DNA of 44,845 bases from Candidatus Zixiibacteriota bacterium (GTDB taxonomy: Bacteria > Zixibacteria > MSB-5A5 > GN15 > FEB-12): assembly GCA_016926795.1 (NCBI GenBank), contig JAFGNW010000230.1:1-44845 (forward strand). Reading direction: 5' to 3'. Below, in pieces: positions 3,373 to 33,384 of this stretch; within the stretch, counting starts at the first letter, position 1, and every line of letters starts with the position of its first letter. Both the position numbers and the translations under genes were made by a program. Below the pieces are notes generated by a model that was given only the letters and a program-made list of their open reading frames with translations, did no database searches and was not told the DNA's origin.

Positions 3373-6300
3373 TTACAGGTTAACTTCCAAACCTAACCTG
3401 ATCTGCCGGCCGTAATCCCAGTTGTAGGGATTAAGGTCATACTCGGTTCCGCCGTAAATGACCTGGGTGATGTTCTGTCGGGTATCGGGGCGTCCGGTGG
3501 CGGTATAAATATAGGTCACGTTCCGGGCGTCGAAGATATTCTCAACCCAGCAAATGAAGCTGTAATCGAGTCCGAAGAGCGAGAAATCCTTGGTGAAGCG
3601 AACATCGAAAACCGCCGTGGCCGGATACCGCAGGGAGTTGCGCTCGATCGATTCGGCCGTTTCCTGCTGAATATTGGGATAGCTCTTGTCCGGCGTAAAC
3701 GGTTGACCGCTCTCGATGACGGATTCGATCGAGAGAGACCAGCCGTTGGGAATCGGCAGGCCGAACAGCCGCGGCTTCACCGTATTCGGCACATAAATCT
3801 GAACGGCTGCCTTCAGTGAGTGCCGGATATCGTTATCCAGTGGCGCTTCGGACAGCGGCTCCCGCGACAGGTAGAAGTCACTCAGGTAATCTTCGTTGGT
3901 CTGGGAGGCCTTACCGTAAGCGAAGGCATAAGTGTAACTGACCTGGCCGTTGACATAACCGCCGCCGCGTTTTTCCAGAGTAAACTCGAAACCGCGGCTC
4001 CGACCATAGTCGGAGTTCTGATACTGCTGACGGGTCAGGCCGCCCACCTTCACCTGTTTGCTGTTGATCTTGTCAAACTCGTCTTTGAAATAACCCGAGA
4101 TGTCAATCGAGTAATATTCGCTCATGGCATACTTTACGCCGAAAGAGTACTGGATGGTTTTCTGGTAATCCAGGTTGTAGTTGCCGACAACATCGTTCTG
4201 GTCCACGGATGAAGTGTTACGCGCGTACATGTATAGGTATTCCGGGAGCTGGTAGAAATGGCCGTAGTTGAAATGGACTTTGGCCTTGTCCGATATCGGG
4301 TAGGAAAAACCTATACGCGGTGAAATTTTATGACGGTCACCGTAAATGATACCGGAACCGAGGTCGTCGTTACGCGCCACCTCGATAAGACTGTCGGTAT
4401 CCTGGATGAAGAAGTCCCAGCGGACACCCAGCGAAGCAATCATCGAACCGTATTCAAGTTTATCGCGGAAATATCCGGTCCCGGCCATCGGGCTGTAGTT
4501 AAACACGTCGCGGAAGGCGCCGCGGTCCGGGTAAGGACCGCCGTCATCACGACCGGTATAAAGAATGTAAACTCTTTCGATATCTTCAAAAGTAAAGCTT
4601 TCATGACGGAAAGCGAAACCGGCTTTCAGTTCGTGCGGACCGAGCTGGCGGAATATTTTCAGCTCCCCGCGGACCCTCTCGATCTCGCGCTGCGTCCAGG
4701 AAATATCTTCGGTATAGTTCCTGGGATCCAGGAAGTTATAGCTGCCACCGTAATCATATTTACCGTTGCCGTTGAGGTCGTCATAAGGTTCGCCCGGGTC
4801 GTACTGGTAATTGCGGCCGTCGAATATACCGTTGCCGTTGCGGTCGAGGAAAGGAATCCCCGGTTCCCACTGGCAACCTTCCGAACCCAGTTCGCAAGGT
4901 CCGTCATAGCGGCCGTTGTGATTGAGGTCATGATTCTCAATGCCGGTGCTCCGGATAAAGACATCGATACCCCGGTCATACAGACCGTTACCGTTGACGT
5001 CGGTGAACGGCTCGCCCAGAATAGAGTCCCCGTCGATATAAGGTTCCGGGCTGCGGTTATTGATGTTGGACACCAGATTCTGGTCGAGAACACCGTTGCC
5101 GTTCTTGTCATAAAGAATATCACCGGAGTCCCAAACACCGTTGCCGTTGATGTCGATAAACGGCTCACCTTCGAGACTGTCCTGATAACCGTTATTGTTG
5201 AAGCGGAATCCGGACCAGTTTATCGAACCGTCCGGGTTTGTATATTCGGTACCGCCCTGTATGTTTTCATCGAAAAGATATTCCCCGAAGGTGTACGCCG
5301 GCCCGTTCACATCCGTCCCGTAAATAGCCGAATCCGGGAACAGGTTGATAATCGGTTCCGGGGCGTCATAGACACCGTTGTCGTTCAGGTCCTGGAAACT
5401 TTCCCATTCGGTATCGAGGTTGAATTCATCGGGGTTCAGACCCTTGCCGGGATTGTTAGGATCACCGGGCTTCTGGGTATATTTAAAGGTATAATAGGAA
5501 AGCACCAGCTCATAGTTCATATCTTTTGAAATCGCCTGGGAAACCTCCAGTGAAAGAGATTTCCAATCCTCCTCGTATATCGGTGCCGTCGAAGATGAAT
5601 AACGATAGTTCCAGTCAAAAACCGTACCGTGCCGTTGAGAATTCTTGTAAGACAGAATGAACTTCAAATTCTGTTTGGGCCGGAACTTCAGGTTGGCCAT
5701 CCAGTAATACCGGTTGCGCAGGCGTTCCGGAATCTGGATACCGAAGAAATTAAAGAAACCGTAATTGTTCCGGGTTTCCGGAGTGTCGTAAGAATCATAC
5801 TGGTAATAACCGTCGTCCTTATCAACTTCAGCGTAGAAGTAATAAGTGAATTCCTTATCCTCCAGGAAATTAAGTCCCAGCGCCGGGAGAATTTTATTCT
5901 TGAAAATCGGGTCCGGACCGGAAAGAGAGAACCTCGTGAAATCATAGTTACGCGAATATTCGTTCAGGTCGGCATTTCCCAGGTCATCGGTAATATACTG
6001 GAAATTGATGCGGGTGTTATCTTTGGACCCGGTCTGGGTGGAGATTTTTACGATACCGCTAAGAGCGTCACCGTATTCGGGGTCGAAACCGTCTTTAATA
6101 ATCTGAATTTCCTGAATGGACCCCGATACCAGCGAAAGGTTCGCCCCCGTCTGGCCCATACCGCCGAGGGGGTCGCCGATCGGGACACCGTCGAGAATGT
6201 AGGATACCTCACCGGCCCGGCCGCCGCGGATAAATACTTCACCGGTTGAAGTGGTTTGAACACCAGCCACCTGCTCCAGCAGAGCATCCACCGTCTGTAC

Positions 6301-6747
6301 CGGTTTGTGCTTGATCGTTTCAGAAGTAATGGTCAGCTTGTTCTCAGTTTCAAAACGGTCAATCACGTCGTGGGTACCAATAACCTTGATCGTTTTATCG
6401 AGGTCACTGACTTTCTTGGTCAGTTTCTGAGAAACCTCGGTAGTCAGGTCAGCGTTCACCACTACATCCGAAACTTCGACAGTGTTATATTCGATAGAAG
6501 AGATCCTAATGGTATAGGTTCCGGGATCCAGGCGAGGGATAATATACTTGCCATCGAGATCGGTGAAGTTACCCATAGTGGTCCCCACGATCAAGACCGA
6601 GGCATTTACAACAGCTTCCCCCGTTTCAGCGTCAGTGATTGTTCCCTTAATCTGACCGAAAGCCGCTGCGAAAGCGGCGGTAGGCATTATCAGTAGACCG
6701 ACAAGGAAAATCGCCAGTAGAGTACAGAACCTCTTTTTATCGAACAT
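3373..6747 (-). CDS. TonB-dependent receptor with N-terminal carboxypeptidase-regulatory-like domain and a large DxNxNG-repeat insertion
   Basis: Signal peptide, GQIKGTITDAETGEA..., plug motifs (FIRGGRAGEVSYILDGVP, GFDPEYGDALSGIV), SPRIGFSYP, C-terminal GRQIRLGLEVNL. AAGGAGG RBS upstream. Confidence 0.93.
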   Translation of the reverse strand: MFDKKRFCTLLAIFLVGLLIMPTAAFAAAFGQIKGTITDAETGEAVVNASVLIVGTTMGNFTDLDGKYIIPRLDPGTYTIRISSIEYNTVEVSDVVVNADLTTEVSQKLTKKVSDLDKTIKVIGTHDVIDRFETENKLTITSETIKHKPVQTVDALLEQVAGVQTTSTGEVFIRGGRAGEVSYILDGVPIGDPLGGMGQTGANLSLVSGSIQEIQIIKDGFDPEYGDALSGIVKISTQTGSKDNTRINFQYITDDLGNADLNEYSRNYDFTRFSLSGPDPIFKNKILPALGLNFLEDKEFTYYFYAEVDKDDGYYQYDSYDTPETRNNYGFFNFFGIQIPERLRNRYYWMANLKFRPKQNLKFILSYKNSQRHGTVFDWNYRYSSSTAPIYEEDWKSLSLEVSQAISKDMNYELVLSYYTFKYTQKPGDPNNPGKGLNPDEFNLDTEWESFQDLNDNGVYDAPEPIINLFPDSAIYGTDVNGPAYTFGEYLFDENIQGGTEYTNPDGSINWSGFRFNNNGYQDSLEGEPFIDINGNGVWDSGDILYDKNGNGVLDQNLVSNINNRSPEPYIDGDSILGEPFTDVNGNGLYDRGIDVFIRSTGIENHDLNHNGRYDGPCELGSEGCQWEPGIPFLDRNGNGIFDGRNYQYDPGEPYDDLNGNGKYDYGGSYNFLDPRNYTEDISWTQREIERVRGELKIFRQLGPHELKAGFAFRHESFTFEDIERVYILYTGRDDGGPYPDRGAFRDVFNYSPMAGTGYFRDKLEYGSMIASLGVRWDFFIQDTDSLIEVARNDDLGSGIIYGDRHKISPRIGFSYPISDKAKVHFNYGHFYQLPEYLYMYARNTSSVDQNDVVGNYNLDYQKTIQYSFGVKYAMSEYYSIDISGYFKDEFDKINSKQVKVGGLTRQQYQNSDYGRSRGFEFTLEKRGGGYVNGQVSYTYAFAYGKASQTNEDYLSDFYLSREPLSEAPLDNDIRHSLKAAVQIYVPNTVKPRLFGLPIPNGWSLSIESVIESGQPFTPDKSYPNIQQETAESIERNSLRYPATAVFDVRFTKDFSLFGLDYSFICWVENIFDARNVTYIYTATGRPDTRQNITQVIYGGTEYDLNPYNWDYGRQIRLGLEVNL

Positions 6748-7010: not shown

Positions 7011-7808
7011 TTATTTGTTTAATATTCGCCTCTGAATAAGGTTGTTTTTTTTTAAAAAAATGCATCTTTTTTTTATTTTCTCAAGTTCCTCCGGAGAGTT
7101 ATCCACCGCCACCACATCGAATTTTAAAAAAGATGCCATCGCTTTACGAAAAATTTCAGCTATTTCATTAAATTCTTTATTCACAATCGTTTGTTTGTCG
7201 GATACCGGACAAAGCCAGCCATCATTTAGAGCCGGATGCGATACTAACCCGTTCAACTTGACAGAGCCGTGCTGCAAAAGAGACGTACCGAGCCGTTTCT
7301 GGGCGGATGCAATTATTTTTCGGTTTTCGGAAACCAGCTCATATTTGGCCCGGGAGGCGAAACAGGGAGCTTTGTGAAAAAAATCCGGCCGGGCGTTTTC
7401 ACGGGAGGATTGACGCACTAATTCGGCTTCGAATCCCAGCATATTCAAAAAAAGAGCCAGAGCGCCTGCGAGAGCGCGCGAAGTTGCCGAAAGCGAGCCG
7501 ACCAGCATATCGTTTTCCAGACCGGCGCTGTTGAGTGCGACCGCGTAAGTATATTCCGAGGGGTCGTGATAAATCGCCCGGCCGCCGGTAAGACGACGGA
7601 TAACGGGTGTGTCCCCCACCCGGGAAAAATCAAGAGCGGTCTCCTGCCGCTGATTGTAACCGAAGGTAATCGCTCCCGGTCGCCAACGGTAAAGGCGCAG
7701 GCAGACCAGACCCGGTTCGTTCAGGACCCGCGACAACAACCATTCGTCGAAAGCCATGTTAAAATACGGGTCAGCGGCATTGTGTACATAAAACAAGGCC
7801 GGTTTCAT
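7011..7808 (-). CDS. Lipoate-protein ligase A / octanoyltransferase LipM family
   Basis: FNMAFDEWLL, LRLYRW..ITFGYNQ, RRLTGGRAIYH, CF...KIIASAQKR..LLQHGS. The ATG at 7808 (MKPALF) is preferred to the ORF start at 7844. Confidence 0.88.
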   Translation of the reverse strand: MKPALFYVHNAADPYFNMAFDEWLLSRVLNEPGLVCLRLYRWRPGAITFGYNQRQETALDFSRVGDTPVIRRLTGGRAIYHDPSEYTYAVALNSAGLENDMLVGSLSATSRALAGALALFLNMLGFEAELVRQSSRENARPDFFHKAPCFASRAKYELVSENRKIIASAQKRLGTSLLQHGSVKLNGLVSHPALNDGWLCPVSDKQTIVNKEFNEIAEIFRKAMASFLKFDVVAVDNSPEELEKIKKRCIFLKKNNLIQRRILNK

Positions 7809-7874
7809 GCCGGACAGTATAAAAAAAAACACCCTGGAAGACAAGGTGCCGAATAAAAAAACTTGTTAAAAAGA

Positions 7875-10808
7875 TTATTCGGAAAGGTCGAGATGATTTA
7901 AGTCGATATCGTATTGTTTGATTTTCAAACGCAGGGTCGATTCGGGAATGTTCAAGCTGGCGGCGGCATGTTTCTTGATACCCTTATGTTCCTTAAGAGC
8001 CTTGATGATAAATTGCTTTTCGTAAGAAGACAGGAAATCATAAAGAGAATATTGATCGTTGAAAACCACATCCTCGAGCGGTGTTGAGAAGCCGGGCTGG
8101 TCAACCGATTCCGACTGATAGGATGTGACAATCTTGCGGGAAACGATATCGGTTTCTATTTTGTTGTTGTCACCGGCCAGAAGGACGAGTTTTTTGATTT
8201 CATTTTCAAGTTCCCGGACGTTCCCCGGCCAGTCATAAGCCACCAGATACCTCATAACCGGCGGCGTGATTTCTTTACCGCTGCTTTCGAGGAAATGCTC
8301 GACCAGAAGCGGGATATCCTCTTTGCGTTCGCGAAGCGGCGGCAGGCGGAAGGTCAGCGCCGTCAACCGGTAGAAAAGATCCTGGCGGAAAGTGCCGTTC
8401 TTCATCTCTTCTTTCAAGTTCTTATTGGTGGCCGAGATAACCCGGACATCGACCTTGCGCGGCGTCGATTCGCCCAGCCGGACTAATTCTTTTTCCTCCA
8501 GGACCCGAAGAATCTTAGCCTGGATGGTCAAAGGCATATCGGCTATTTCATCCAGGAAAAACGTTCCGCCGTCGGCCTCCTCGAACAAGCCCGGCTTGTC
8601 GTTGTTGGCGCCGGTAAAAGCCCCTCGTTTGTAACCGAACAGCTCCGATTCCAGCAGGGTTTCGGGCAGGGCTGCACAGTTGACCGAGATAAAGCGCTTA
8701 TCCCGGCGGCAGGAGTTATAATGTATCGCCCGGGCCAGAACATCCTTGCCGCTGCCGGTCTCGCCCTCGATGGATATCGAGATATTGGAATCGATTACCT
8801 GGTTCACCTGGGCCAGGACTTCGAGCAACTGGCTGTTCTGGGTGATGATGTTCGGGAAAGCCGCTTTCTCCATCAACTGGGCCTTGAGGCGACGGTTATC
8901 CTCAATAAGTTTTTTCTTCTGCAGTTCGGCCGCCTTGAAAACGAGAATGTCGGAGAAACCGACCGCGAAATTAAGCTCGACCTGGCTGAAAGGATTCAGA
9001 GTATTGTTGACCGACTTCTTGTCGAGATAGAGGAAACAGCGGGAGTTGTTGCTCTGCATGGGAACCACGATAATCGAGGCGATTAAATCCGGTTCATCGG
9101 GGAAGAGGTCGTTGACATACGGGTCCCGCCGGCAGTCCAGAAGCAGGGTGGGCCGGGTAAGAGAAATTTCCTCTCCCAGCAATTGCTGTATATTTTCGGC
9201 GAATTTCTTTTCCTGGAAAGGTGACATGACGGTCGAAGATATGATAGGGTTGGTCTCGTAATCGGGATAATAAACGATTGCCCGCTGAGCGCCGGTCCGC
9301 TTGAGCAGGATGTTCATTATCTCTTCCATCTGCCCGGATTTCAAATCATCGACCTCGTCCTGGGTGATAAGGTTGCCGAAAATCTTAAATTCGTTTTCGT
9401 TGGAAATAGACAGGGCGATAGCCTGGTCGGCCATCGATTGCAGGAACTGGTTAACCGCCCGAGCCTTGCCCTTCTCACCGAGGCTTAAGAACGTTTTTTC
9501 GGCCCGGCTGAGTTTTTTGAAACCCCGCGAGAGATTGCCCTGCTGGCAGGCGAAGATACCGGCTTTGAAATCCGCTTCCGCCAACCAGAAATTAACTTTC
9601 AGTTTTTTGAAAATACGCCGGGTTTCATCATAGATTCCCTGAATTTTTTCATATTCATCGCTTTCAGCCTGCTGACGGATTTCCGCCGCAATTAAAAGCG
9701 TCTTGGCCAGTTCATAGGGGAATTCCACCGCGCGAAGGATTTCCACCGCCCGGTTGATATATTCGAGAGCCTCAGCATGTTCCGAACGCATAGCGTACAC
9801 GCGAGCGATAGCCCGATAAGCCATCCCCACCTCGGCTTTCTCACCGATTTTCTGAGCCACTTCGAGTGCCTTCTGACCATATTTCATGGCTTCATCTACA
9901 TAATCGAGCTCCAGTTCCACCTCGGCCAGCAAGCGGCAACTTTGAGATACCAGGGTATTTCCGGGGGAAAGCAACAACGCTTCCTTATAAGCTTCCGTAA
10001 GAAAATTCTTGGCCTGGTAAATATCACCCTTATCCAGTGCCAATTCACCGGAGAATTCGAAATATATGACTTTTTCTGATTTCAGGTTCAGCTTCTCGAT
10101 GATTTTCAAAGCCTTGTTGTAAAGCCGCGAGGTCGTACTATAATCGCGACGTTTGAAATTAAGATATCCGAGCGAAAGGAGGTTGATAACCTGAGCGACT
10201 TCCTGATTGTGTTCAGCGTTATAATTCAGGGCATCGGTAAGATTTTTTTCGGCTTCGTTCCACTGCCCGACGAGAATGCGGGTCATACCGGCGTTACCGG
10301 TAATCTGGGCCATCTTGCGGGGATTGTCGGCAGCTTTTTCAATCGCTTCATCAAGAAATTCCAGAGCGGCGGAGAAATTACCACGATAAAATGCGATACG
10401 GGCCAATTCGTTAAGAGAGTCAATCTGGCCGAGGGTGTCGGTTGCCCGACGGAATGCGGCCAGACCGTCGCGAGCCCGAATCTCCGCATTCTTCAGATCA
10501 CCAATCTGGGAATAGGCTTTGGCCAGCGTCAGTTGAACCCGACCGTAATGCCGGTTCAGGGGAAAGCCGGCCAGAATCTTGGCCGCTTTGAGACCCGCCT
10601 CGACGGTTTTTCGATATACACCTTCAAAGTACTTGACCTCGGCCTGCAACAGAAGATACAATCCCAGTTCATGTTCCGTACTTTCAAAATCCTGCTGGTT
10701 TAATAGGGCAAACTCCTTCTGAGCAACCTGGTACTGTCTCTGCCTCAGTAACTCTTCGACAGCCAGAAGGCGATCATCAAAAGTATATTTCTGTGAGGGA
10801 ACCTGCAT
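7875..10808 (-). CDS. Sigma54-dependent enhancer-binding protein: TPR array + GAF-like domain + AAA+ + Fis-type HTH
   Basis: Walker A GETGSGKD, ESELFGYKRGAFTGA, FFLDEI, FRQDLFYRL, WPGNVRELEN, C-terminal KHAAASLNIPESTLRLKI. The N-terminal ~460 aa are tandem helical TPR-like repeats, with no receiver domain. Confidence 0.93.
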   Translation of the reverse strand: MQVPSQKYTFDDRLLAVEELLRQRQYQVAQKEFALLNQQDFESTEHELGLYLLLQAEVKYFEGVYRKTVEAGLKAAKILAGFPLNRHYGRVQLTLAKAYSQIGDLKNAEIRARDGLAAFRRATDTLGQIDSLNELARIAFYRGNFSAALEFLDEAIEKAADNPRKMAQITGNAGMTRILVGQWNEAEKNLTDALNYNAEHNQEVAQVINLLSLGYLNFKRRDYSTTSRLYNKALKIIEKLNLKSEKVIYFEFSGELALDKGDIYQAKNFLTEAYKEALLLSPGNTLVSQSCRLLAEVELELDYVDEAMKYGQKALEVAQKIGEKAEVGMAYRAIARVYAMRSEHAEALEYINRAVEILRAVEFPYELAKTLLIAAEIRQQAESDEYEKIQGIYDETRRIFKKLKVNFWLAEADFKAGIFACQQGNLSRGFKKLSRAEKTFLSLGEKGKARAVNQFLQSMADQAIALSISNENEFKIFGNLITQDEVDDLKSGQMEEIMNILLKRTGAQRAIVYYPDYETNPIISSTVMSPFQEKKFAENIQQLLGEEISLTRPTLLLDCRRDPYVNDLFPDEPDLIASIIVVPMQSNNSRCFLYLDKKSVNNTLNPFSQVELNFAVGFSDILVFKAAELQKKKLIEDNRRLKAQLMEKAAFPNIITQNSQLLEVLAQVNQVIDSNISISIEGETGSGKDVLARAIHYNSCRRDKRFISVNCAALPETLLESELFGYKRGAFTGANNDKPGLFEEADGGTFFLDEIADMPLTIQAKILRVLEEKELVRLGESTPRKVDVRVISATNKNLKEEMKNGTFRQDLFYRLTALTFRLPPLRERKEDIPLLVEHFLESSGKEITPPVMRYLVAYDWPGNVRELENEIKKLVLLAGDNNKIETDIVSRKIVTSYQSESVDQPGFSTPLEDVVFNDQYSLYDFLSSYEKQFIIKALKEHKGIKKHAAASLNIPESTLRLKIKQYDIDLNHLDLSE

Positions 10809-10845
10809 TATACTTTTACTTTGTTTAAATAATTATAAATATTAA

Positions 10846-11214
10846 TTACTTCGCCGTACTTTTTACTGCGGCTGCTTGCTCATTATTACTTCCTTCCGCC
10901 TCGGACATGATATAATAGGTATCCGGCTGATAATAATAAACAGAATTCATGATGAAGAATAAAATTTGAGATGCAATACCGTCGATTAAATCGGGAGAAT
11001 CGGGATTGACGACAAAACTACTGGACATAATCACCTGAGATGAGGTAGTGGTGTCCGGTTTGTCGTCATTGGGATCATCATGAGTACCCGTATCATCAGC
11101 ATCCCAGGGATACCCATCACTACTTCCGTTACCGGAAAATACAGGGGCAGCAATAAAGCAAGTTATCACAAATGCTAAAAGTATCATTAGCAGCATAAAT
11201 TTTTTAGCATGCAT
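10846..11214 (-). CDS. Small secreted protein (122 aa) with acidic low-complexity region, directly upstream of the TPR activator
   Basis: AGGAGG RBS. Sec-type signal MHAKKFMLLMILLAFVITCFIAAPVFS, then GNGSSDGYPWDADDTGTHDDPNDDKPD. 37 bp gap to the activator. Confidence 0.75.
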   Translation of the reverse strand: MHAKKFMLLMILLAFVITCFIAAPVFSGNGSSDGYPWDADDTGTHDDPNDDKPDTTTSSQVIMSSSFVVNPDSPDLIDGIASQILFFIMNSVYYYQPDTYYIMSEAEGSNNEQAAAVKSTAK

Positions 11215-11291
11215 GACATTGCCTCCTATTAATAAATGTATTGTCTTCTATATCAACAAAAGCAACAAAAAAAGGTTTACTTTTTATACAA

Positions 11292-11368
11292 CGCATATTT
11301 TGCCACTTATAATTTAGAAAATAGCTATCGCTTTGTCAAGCAATATTATAGAATTCGCAAATTTTGCG
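11292..11368 (-). promoter_or_regulatory. Sigma70 promoter bracketed by two related 13-bp palindromes (putative operators)
   Basis: Minus strand TTGACA (11339-11334)-N17-TAAATT (11316-11311). CGCAAATTTTGCG at 11356-11368 and CGCATATTTTGCC at 11292-11304. Confidence 0.6.
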
Positions 11369-33011: not shown

Positions 33012-33017
33012 CATTTT

Positions 33018-33282
33018 GTGCACCCACCTCCGAGCCGCGCTCAACCGGCGCTCCGGACAGCCGGCTCAGGCCGGGCTGACCCGCAACACACATCAGGAAC
33101 TCCTTACCGCTGCTACCTTCCGGTCCTGACGGGATTCGGAGGCTGATGTTGTACGGGACCCAACCCTCAACACCGCTTATCCGTCGCCACCGGACGGCTA
33201 CCGCACCCTCGGGTGGGAATTCGACCCCGGTATAGCGGATTCCGGGTTACAGGGCACCGCTAGCTCCCCGTCTAGCACTCAA
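33018..33282 (-). ncRNA. ffs: Signal recognition particle RNA, large bacterial type with Alu domain
   Basis: 5' GTGCTAGACGGGGAGCTAGCGGTGCCCTGTAACCCGGAATCCGCTATACCGGGGTCGAATTCCC resembles the Bacillus scRNA Alu domain. S-domain GTCAGGACCGGAAGGTAGCAGC. 3' GGGTGCAC pairs back to the 5' end. About 265 nt. Confidence 0.95.
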
Positions 33283-33311: not shown

Positions 33312-33384
33312 TGGAGCAGATCGGGATCGAACCGACGACCTCCACGTTGCGAACGTGGCGCTCTCCCAACTGAGCTACTGCCCC
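33312..33384 (-). tRNA. tRNA-Ala(CGC), CCA not encoded
   Basis: GGGGCAGTAGCTCAGTTGGGAGAGCGCCACGTTCGCAACGTGGAGGTCGTCGGTTCGATCCCGATCTGCTCCA. G3-U70 pair, anticodon CGC, followed by TTA. Confidence 0.97.

Follow-up and report, generated by a model that had tools for sequence, protein, structure and literature searches.

What connects a small protein that carries an export signal to a transcriptional activator that appears to remain in the cytoplasm? This question is raised by a 44,845-nt stretch of DNA from a Candidatus Zixiibacteriota bacterium (contig JAFGNW010000230.1; "the window" refers below to this whole stretch), in which an open reading frame (ORF) for a 122-aa protein with a predicted Sec signal peptide is followed, on the minus strand, by the gene for a 977-aa sigma-54 activator with an input region of tetratricopeptide repeats (TPRs). 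An earlier note on this DNA had taken the two for a possible peptide-signalling circuit resembling the RRNPP systems. The pair was found to be conserved through the order of Zixibacteria sampled here and to have survived several duplications, the small protein nearly always carrying a short motif in which Trp is accompanied by acidic residues. The answer preferred, tentatively, is that the two genes form a signalling module. The features of the two genes are the following.

10846..11214, minus strand: gene for the small exported protein, 122 aa, a signal-peptide ORF (stop codon included).
11134..11214, minus strand: predicted Sec signal peptide, residues 1–27, with n-, h- and c-regions as read from the sequence.
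11095..11112, minus strand: Trp-acidic motif Y-P-W-D-A-D, residues 35–40, recognized by conservation in alignment A1.
10933..10989, minus strand: aromatic/hydrophobic helix predicted by AlphaFold2, residues 76–94, the second conserved element, not resembling a transmembrane segment.
7875..10808, minus strand: gene for the TPR-GAF-AAA+-HTH (helix-turn-helix) sigma-54 activator, 977 aa (stop codon included), assigned by Pfam and starting 37 bp past the stop of the small ORF.
9429..10808, minus strand: TPR sensor region, residues 1 to ~460, with TPR_12 and TPR_MalT matches.
8979..9362, minus strand: GAF-fold domain, residues ~483–610, from which a long linker helix leads on to the AAA+ domain (predicted structure and Foldseek).
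8352..8849, minus strand: sigma-54 interaction AAA+ domain, with Walker A at residues 682–688 and GAFTGA at residues 729–734.
7911..8024, minus strand: Fis-type HTH_8 DNA-binding domain (Pfam).

The product of the small ORF has no Pfam family match. Its strong ribosome-binding site, pointed out in the earlier note, was confirmed, with AGGAGG standing 7 nt before the ATG; the Sec signal, noted there too, is a prediction borne out by features that resemble all three regions of a signal peptide, and the coordinates likewise agree with the 37 bp given there for the distance to the activator gene. A basic n-region precedes a hydrophobic core (12-residue Kyte-Doolittle maximum of 3.3), and a c-region of small residues ends in V-F-S, after which the chain continues G-N-G-S-S-D-G-Y-P-W-D. 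Signal-peptidase cleavage would be expected after V-F-S.

Apart from its extra TPR array, the activator is built like an ordinary enhancer-binding protein of the GAF type. Matches to TPR_12, TPR_MalT, TPR_1, TPR_2 and other TPR families were obtained with Pfam over residues ~90–365, together with Sigma54_activat (PF00158) at residues 654–819 (E 1.2e-68), AAA_lid_14 and HTH_8 (E 6.6e-9). The same searches detected no receiver domain and, at E up to 0.01, no RRNPP-specific family. The earlier description of the input as TPR plus GAF-like is therefore supported by Pfam for the repeats, whereas GAF remained below threshold by sequence (Pfam E 0.06, PDB profile E ~1) and was recognized through predicted structure. 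When residues 462–650 were modelled on 48 orthologues (pLDDT 84.3, pTM 0.81), the best Foldseek matches in the PDB were GAF domains (among them DosS, NifA 8jrc and Nlh1 4g3k; best E 2.8e-4, prob 1.00), with 17 GAF-domain matches at E up to 0.001, and the model points to a GAF fold between the TPRs and the AAA+ domain. Walker A (G682–K688) and GAFTGA (G729–A734) are intact, as the earlier note had reported for GAFTGA, and invariant or nearly so in 48 orthologues. Six polar residues of the TPR region are also invariant (N172, R221, Q289, R292, E323 and E326). Neither a signal peptide nor a transmembrane segment was seen at the N-terminus of the activator.

An activator orthologue of ~980 aa was found, by searching with the TPR part, in all 61 genomes of the order sample, which covers four families and 52 genera of one Zixibacteria order. 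The small protein as sole query had already matched just upstream of the orthologous activator in most of these genomes. Upstream DNA was taken from 59 loci, giving 60 with the window; G046 was omitted, as its match was at paralogue level only. A small ORF of 79–128 aa precedes the activator on the same strand in 60/60 loci, at a gap of 17–151 nt (median 52). Fifty six of these ORFs were found by an automatic picker and four by eye (two with P-F for P-W and two where an upstream P-W had misled the picker). Within the genus of the window the small ORF was found to be fast-evolving and under purifying selection (dN/dS 0.18–0.45, six pairs), which indicates that it is a real gene.

Three elements are conserved in alignment A1, namely the signal peptide, a motif directly after it and a Trp-containing hydrophobic segment further on. 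The rest is variable and rich in Gly, Ser, Asp, Thr, Pro and Asn, with the C-terminal tail most variable of all. The family motif has the consensus E-[H/N/G]-P-W-D-x-D and lies just after the predicted signal-peptidase site. Its residues were counted over the 60 loci as E in 46, then H in 32, N in 11 or G in 7, P in 60, W in 58 (F in 2), D in 52, any residue, and D in 48, where the count for W and F takes H-P-W-D as the true motif of L065; in the alignment P36 is invariant and W37 at least 90% conserved. The segment GNGSSDGYPWD, which had been singled out in the earlier note as distinctive, holds up in part, since P-W-D-x-D is the conserved core but GNGSSDG and the Y in place of H are peculiar to the genus. 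The expectation that orthologous activators would be accompanied by a signal-peptide ORF (60/60) with a short motif of the [H/Y]PWD type (P in 60/60, W in 58/60) agrees with these results.

Beyond the order, all five orthologous loci read from five other families have a small ORF with [D/E/G]-H-P-W-D-[D/E]. A phylum-wide search with a TPR profile (E up to 1e-45) gave a match in 249/285 genomes, and a profile of the small protein, specific for the long type, matched in 187/285. In families f6, f16, f17 and f18 (32 genomes) the TPR profile found nothing and the small-protein profile gave two weak hits.

In many orthologues the predicted mature chain would start with X-X-His or X-His, as in G-E-H-P-W-D (window 11095–11133 and homologues), and amino-terminal Cu/Ni-binding sites resemble such ends. 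The His is present in only 32/60, however, and is replaced by N, G, D or Y in 28/60 while P-W-D stays, so that it is not the conserved feature.

Sec-type features (a K/R n-region, a hydrophobic h-region and small residues at -3/-1) are present in 60/60 small proteins, as judged by eye and by hydrophobicity, the 12-residue maximum spanning 2.4–3.7 over the 60 homologues. A Cys in the h-region is common, yet it is absent from many members of families f2 and f3 and does not stand in a lipobox context, and a lipoprotein reading was rejected on these grounds. For the window protein AlphaFold2, supplied with a 60-sequence alignment, predicted a helix at residues 3–26 (pLDDT >90), disorder at 27–75, the helix at 76–94 (pLDDT ~70–81) and a disordered tail, with a pTM of 0.29. 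Between the motif and the hydrophobic segment the mean net charge of the 60 orthologues is -8. The helix segment is aromatic and only moderately hydrophobic, and in family f3 it is reduced to a Trp-rich stretch of ~10 residues. A type-I membrane protein was considered and rejected, as the 19-residue Kyte-Doolittle window reaches 1.6 in just 3/60 and the C-terminal tails have no positive-inside bias (22 positive, 18 neutral and 20 negative, n=60). The mature protein is accordingly not described as membrane-anchored, a possibility raised in the earlier note; it is predicted to be, as a rule, an acidic and disordered chain with one aromatic helix. In the ESM Atlas the small protein had only weak leads, at a score of 0.80, among hypothetical proteins from Eisenbacteria that are ~110 aa long.

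The association is not confined to the long activators. Shorter TPR proteins are present in every genome of the order in two length classes (~750–830 aa and 705–734 aa), the classes having been set by receptor length and E-value, independently of the motif. Those sampled have the architecture TPR-Sigma54_activat-AAA_lid-HTH_8 without GAF (4/4 of the longer and 3/3 of the shorter class). About 900 nt of upstream DNA was taken from 20 longer-class and 19 shorter-class loci, of which L158, with 124 nt only, was dropped. The 750–830 aa class has an upstream signal-peptide ORF with [D/E]-[H/Q]-[P/T]-W-G-[G/D/E] in 20/20 loci (HPWGG, for example), and the 705–734 aa class has a Trp flanked by acidic residues in 16/18 (the variant D-P/G-W-G/E, such as D-P-W-G-E, and also G-G-W-D-E-P), the exceptions being one locus with F for W and one where no ORF was found. 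In both classes the motif lies ~15–30 residues past the signal peptide and hence is not part of the cleavage site.

Other families of the phylum gave a similar picture, with a Trp motif in 10/11 TPR-activator loci from five further families (H-P-D-Q-E in the eleventh) and D-H-P-W-Q-D-D before a 736-aa paralogue in one of the genomes that had supplied the five orthologous loci outside the order. Altogether 116 TPR-activator loci were read, with an upstream signal-peptide ORF in 115 and a Trp motif in 111. Two to five paralogous cassettes are present per genome, and in the five cassettes of genome G215 the residue pattern after the Trp is different in each. Cassettes have been duplicated three times or more without loss of the pairing, each class of receptor keeping a motif variant of its own, and the suggestion that the motif would co-vary with its receptor is upheld at the level of paralogue classes.

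The genome of the window itself has a second cassette on contig C186, where a TPR activator cut by the contig end is accompanied by a signal-peptide ORF of 129 aa in which S-D-P-W-G-E occurs together with a Trp-rich helix. Six-frame ORFs of 60–220 aa with a signal-peptide-like start were collected from this genome as a specificity set, and only 3/468 were found to have a Trp-acidic motif within residues 19–95. Two of the three precede the only two TPR activators found, and the third resembles a polytopic membrane protein.

Some features of the paralogous loci are recorded here in their own right. In L153, L161 and L164, of the shortest class, the small signal-peptide gene is present twice in tandem, and the Trp-acidic motifs of the two copies differ slightly. 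The leaders L130–L149, before the 750–830 aa paralogues, have a TTGACA-type promoter ~135–150 nt ahead of the start codon and a short GC-rich hairpin. They also share a conserved ribosome site of unusual sequence, CAAGGAGTG, with which a C-rich box of the CCTCAC / TCCGCC type could pair. Nothing comparable was seen in the window's own leader.

The strictness of the pairing bears on whether the two products need to interact at all. The small protein might have its role in the periplasm or outer membrane, such as binding a metal or an envelope component through its N-terminal X-X-His/Trp-acidic end, while the TPR and GAF regions sense something else, so that the connection to the activator would consist only of shared expression or a membrane relay. 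The different compartments of the two proteins speak for such an arrangement, and GAF folds and MalT-like TPRs are known as small-molecule sensors in other proteins. The His near the predicted mature N-terminus, in the manner of amino-terminal Cu/Ni sites, would suit a metal-binding role in 32/60 orthologues, but in 28/60 its place is taken by N, G, D or Y with P-W-D kept. A relay would also need paralogue specificity, yet nothing else is conserved in the cassettes, and a link closer than co-expression is indicated by the pairing in 115/116 loci and by the specificity seen across the genome. An indirect connection of this kind is thus considered unlikely.

The signals for transcription and translation of the pair in the window are listed below.

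11356..11368, minus strand: palindrome op1, CGCA-N5-TGCG, 16 nt before the -35 hexamer and exact in 48/48 located promoters.
11311..11339, minus strand: sigma-70-type promoter TTGACA-17 nt-TAAATT, the best promoter-like site on the strand (10 of 12).
11292..11304, minus strand: palindrome op2, GGCA-N5-TGCG, ~6 nt after the -10 hexamer and near the expected transcription start.
11222..11227, minus strand: ribosome-binding site AGGAGG, 7 nt ahead of the small ORF's start codon.
7828..7850, minus strand: terminator-like hairpin of 9 pairs with a T-run, just past the activator stop (a consensus match only).

The promoter is conserved, CTTGACA being kept at the same position in 50/60 loci. The two palindromes, of which op2 has the family form [A/G]GCA-N5-TGCG, were both located in 48/60 loci, op1 usually 16 nt before the -35 hexamer and the two centres 64 bp apart, and their half-sites are exact in all 48. 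As a GG-N10-GC reading fits op1 in no more than 24 of these 48 promoters, and op2 has GG-N8-GC as against the GG-N10-GC of sigma-54 promoters, the palindromes were read as operators. From this pattern they are more likely to be operators of a dimeric DNA-binding protein than sigma-54 promoters. The activator's own HTH would be a candidate binder, resulting in self-repression; NtrC and PspF repress their own expression. Exact CGCA-N5-TGCG is not enriched in the genome of the window (18 copies, compared with 17–22 for other spacings), and the contexts of the palindromes genome-wide revealed no regulon pattern outside the two cassettes. A copy is also found before the second cassette of this genome (C186) and before that of a congener (L165).

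No conserved sigma-54 promoter adjoining the cassette was found in 49 loci. The idea that the small gene is a sigma-54 target of its own activator was rejected for want of a conserved -24/-12 element, and the combination of a sigma-70-type promoter with no -24/-12 promoter indicates that the small gene is not simply the activator's target. The 37-bp gap has no terminator-like site and the two genes are probably co-transcribed. A Shine-Dalgarno sequence with at least 5/6 matches precedes 55/60 small ORFs compared with 8/60 activator genes, which suggests that the small protein is made in excess. Neither the leader nor the gap matched any Rfam family. In the two metatranscriptome runs and the DNA run compared with the window, the only matches were short ones of 90–95% in the conserved AAA+ part, from other organisms.

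A signal-peptide ORF directly before a gene with a weak Shine-Dalgarno sequence, at gaps of 17–151 nt (median 52), recalls the export monitors that act in cis. In a leader of the SecM, VemP or MifM type the ribosome would stall unless the nascent chain is pulled, and stalling would open the weak ribosome site of the activator. Such leaders have an arrest motif, but no column is conserved in the C-terminal third of alignment A1, and the motif that is conserved lies near the N-terminus, far from the stop codon. The class-specific variants of the motif would also be left unexplained, and no conserved hairpin was seen in the gap of the window. This explanation is regarded as highly improbable.

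The strict pairing, the class-private motifs and the lack of a sigma-54 promoter on the small gene are explained most simply if the TPR array recognizes the Trp-acidic motif, the array being the one component that was duplicated together with the small gene, and direct binding of the motif by the TPR domain would be the most economical reading. On this basis a two-gene signalling module is proposed, which is considered quite possible though short of probable, in which the small exported protein is the cognate partner of the TPR sensor. A sigma-70-type promoter between two CGCA-N5-TGCG palindromes would drive both genes. The small protein would be strongly translated and exported by Sec, leaving an acidic, disordered mature part with the motif beside the cleavage site, and the activator, presumably translated weakly, would stay in the cytoplasm with ~460 aa of TPRs and the GAF domain as its input. 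A fragment with the motif would probably be set free outside the cytoplasm and then re-imported, for which OPT-family transporters are the available route, and its binding by the TPR domain would set the ATPase activity of the activator. Paralogous cassettes, each with its own motif variant, would act as separate channels. Export with cleavage, direct binding, the return route and the sign of regulation are all putative parts of this scheme.

Several observations weigh against it. With a cytoplasmic receptor and an exported motif, a return route is required. The Opp-type binding protein SBP_bac_5 (PF00496) was found in only 12/61 genomes of the order, and not in that of the window (88.5% complete), and PTR2 in 14/61; OPT-family oligopeptide transporters are present in 58/61, but this presence is not module-specific. 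The motif is nearly invariant over more than 50 genera, unlike the dialects of quorum sensing. A mature chain of ~95 aa with a second conserved helix is superfluous for a mere pro-peptide, and a TPR region of ~460 aa far exceeds the need of a hexapeptide. Small molecules, too, can be ligands of TPR_MalT-like regions, and a further input might enter through the GAF domain. Finally, neighbouring genes are co-inherited, and conserved adjacency therefore overstates the independence of related genomes.

A single observation on transport is that in G013 an OPT-family transporter gene (C2:78518–80263) lies ~2 kb downstream of the activator of the cassette.

The need for a return route would disappear if the precursor itself were the ligand. 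In a partner switch coupled to secretion, for which FlgM/sigma-28 and ExsE are analogies, the unexported precursor would bind the TPR region through motif and helix and hold the activator on or off until Sec export removes it. The activator would then report export capacity or the rate of precursor synthesis. No import step is necessary, which accords with the failure to find Opp in most genomes; the large TPR surface suits a bipartite ligand of motif and helix, and a shared message would yield both proteins, the small one probably in excess. The signal peptides, however, are very hydrophobic (2.4–3.7), suggesting prompt and possibly co-translational export, by which the pool of precursor in the cytoplasm would be kept small. 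Nor is it easy to see why a genome should have two to five paralogous cassettes that differ in motif if all of them sense one export flux. Both the switch and the role it would give the activator are consequently judged improbable. Release and re-uptake of a fragment, as in the two-gene module preferred here, is favoured because the mature chain is disordered and open to proteases, because small genes occur in tandem (L153, L161 and L164) and because OPT transporters are present in 58/61 genomes.

The neighbourhood of the cassette was examined for further components. Six ORFs between 3.4 and 14 kb were scanned with Pfam and no kinase was found, which, with the lack of a receiver domain on the activator, bears out the earlier remark that neither is present nearby. 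The scanned neighbours are a DUF362 plus 4Fe-4S protein (upstream), a CNNM-CBS-CorC protein, an LplA/B-like protein (downstream) and a TonB-receptor-like protein, and two of them are located as follows.

3373-6747, minus strand: TonB-receptor-like protein, 1124 aa, with CarboxypepD_reg and Plug domains.
7011-7844, minus strand: LplA/B-like protein, from the Pfam scan of neighbours.

A downstream TonB-receptor-like gene recurs in 25/49 loci and an LplA-like gene in 26/49, almost all in family f1, and an upstream DUF362 gene in 22/59. These neighbours recur in only part of the loci, and nothing but the pair is universal. The domain make-up of the TonB-receptor-like protein recalls the Oar-type transporters of Myxococcus, which export a protease. 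Sigma-54 (rpoN) is present in the genome of the window (Sigma54_DBD on contig C264, E 2e-59) along with ~17 sigma-54 activators, and a scan for the consensus alone found canonical TGGCAC-N5-TTGC (-24/-12) sites before flagellar, pilin-like and other genes.

Two further observations concern orthologous activator genes. One in-frame TAA is present in each of G004:C225 and G010:C107 (L074 and L077), where the frames are 693 and 675 aa; faulty assembly or a gene that is broken could account for it. A public record (L070) with an activator 82% identical is titled 'uncultured Ignavibacteriales', while a near-twin and another relative are titled Zixiibacteriota, and its label is probably wrong. Elsewhere in the window a large bacterial SRP RNA (181 bits; 33016-33280, minus strand) adjoins a tRNA gene (33312-33384, minus strand).

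Sigma-54 activators are known to be switched by phosphorylation, by small molecules or by cytoplasmic anti-activators, whilst signalling by gene-encoded peptides that a TPR receptor reads in the cytoplasm is held to be peculiar to the Gram-positive Bacillota. The pairing described here was not found in any of the open-access papers searched. An exported Trp-acidic protein with each TPR-type sigma-54 activator points to a new input class for this family of regulators, and possibly to cell-to-cell or envelope-state signalling in an uncultured, environmentally abundant diderm phylum. In its most far-reaching form, which is possible but doubtful, the proposal is that Zixibacteria use several insulated channels, in which the motif of a Trp-acidic pro-protein, exported by Sec, is bound directly by a sigma-54 activator gated through its TPRs. 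If true, enhancer-binding proteins would gain their first ligand class of this kind, and a diderm would for the first time be seen to follow an RRNPP-like logic, its mode of recognition having converged on the W-acidic binding of kinesin light chain. TPR-sigma-54 activators as such are also present in other phyla. Structure neighbours in the Atlas belong to Krumholzibacteriota, Acidobacteriota and WOR-3 (leads only), and related cassettes may occur in phyla with such activators, these three and Eisenbacteria among them.

Among known systems the closest in layout are the RRNPP(A) pairs (Rap-Phr, NprR-NprX, PlcR-PapR, PrgX and AimR-AimP). Both have a cytoplasmic TPR receptor beside the gene for a small product with a Sec-type export signal, predicted in the present case, and in both a genome holds several paralogous cassettes that are distinguished by their short motifs. 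The receptor of the module, however, has the order TPR-GAF-AAA+-HTH_8, whereas RRNPP receptors have an N-terminal HTH or a phosphatase-type domain before the TPRs. RRNPP peptides are ~5–10 aa from the C-terminal part of a propeptide of 30–60 aa and are re-imported by the Opp oligopeptide permease; here the motif is N-proximal in a protein of 79–128 aa and Opp-type binding proteins are mostly not found. The motif of the module is also nearly invariant between genera and its host is a diderm, while RRNPP systems are treated as a feature of Bacillota in two papers (PMC9765709, PMC10075063). The module is thus RRNPP-like in layout but is not a member of RRNPP, and the circuit proposed in the earlier note stands as far as layout is concerned and falls short in receptor architecture, in motif position, in the lack of genus dialects and in Opp-type proteins (12/61).

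The GAF enhancer-binding proteins NifA, NorR and Aquifex Nlh1 share the GAF domain, the long linker helix, the sigma-54 AAA+ domain with GAFTGA and HTH_8, to which the module adds ~460 aa of TPRs before GAF and, upstream, a conserved gene for an exported partner. Of these activators, NifA is under the control of NifL, a cytoplasmic protein, and NorR responds to NO. SecM, VemP and MifM leaders differ in having a conserved C-terminal arrest motif, of which there is none in the small ORF. Control of a sigma-54 activator by a small protein encoded nearby is shared with PspA-PspF, FleN-FleQ and HrpV-HrpS, PspF and HrpS being known as partner-controlled activators. The AAA+ domain is the target of those partners, which are found in the cytoplasm or peripherally, whereas the partner here has a signal peptide and the candidate docking site is the TPR array. 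FleN-FleQ is presented as a partner-controlled sigma-54 activator in one paper (PMC8528422).

For the docking itself a parallel is offered by kinesin light chain, which is eukaryotic, unrelated by descent and in one compartment with its partner. Its TPR groove binds a short motif with an aromatic residue flanked by acidic ones, according to two papers (PMC6214655, PMC5450233). The motif chemistry is the same as that of E-H-P-W-D-x-D, and kinesin light chain may serve as an analogy, rather than as a relative, for the binding that is proposed here.

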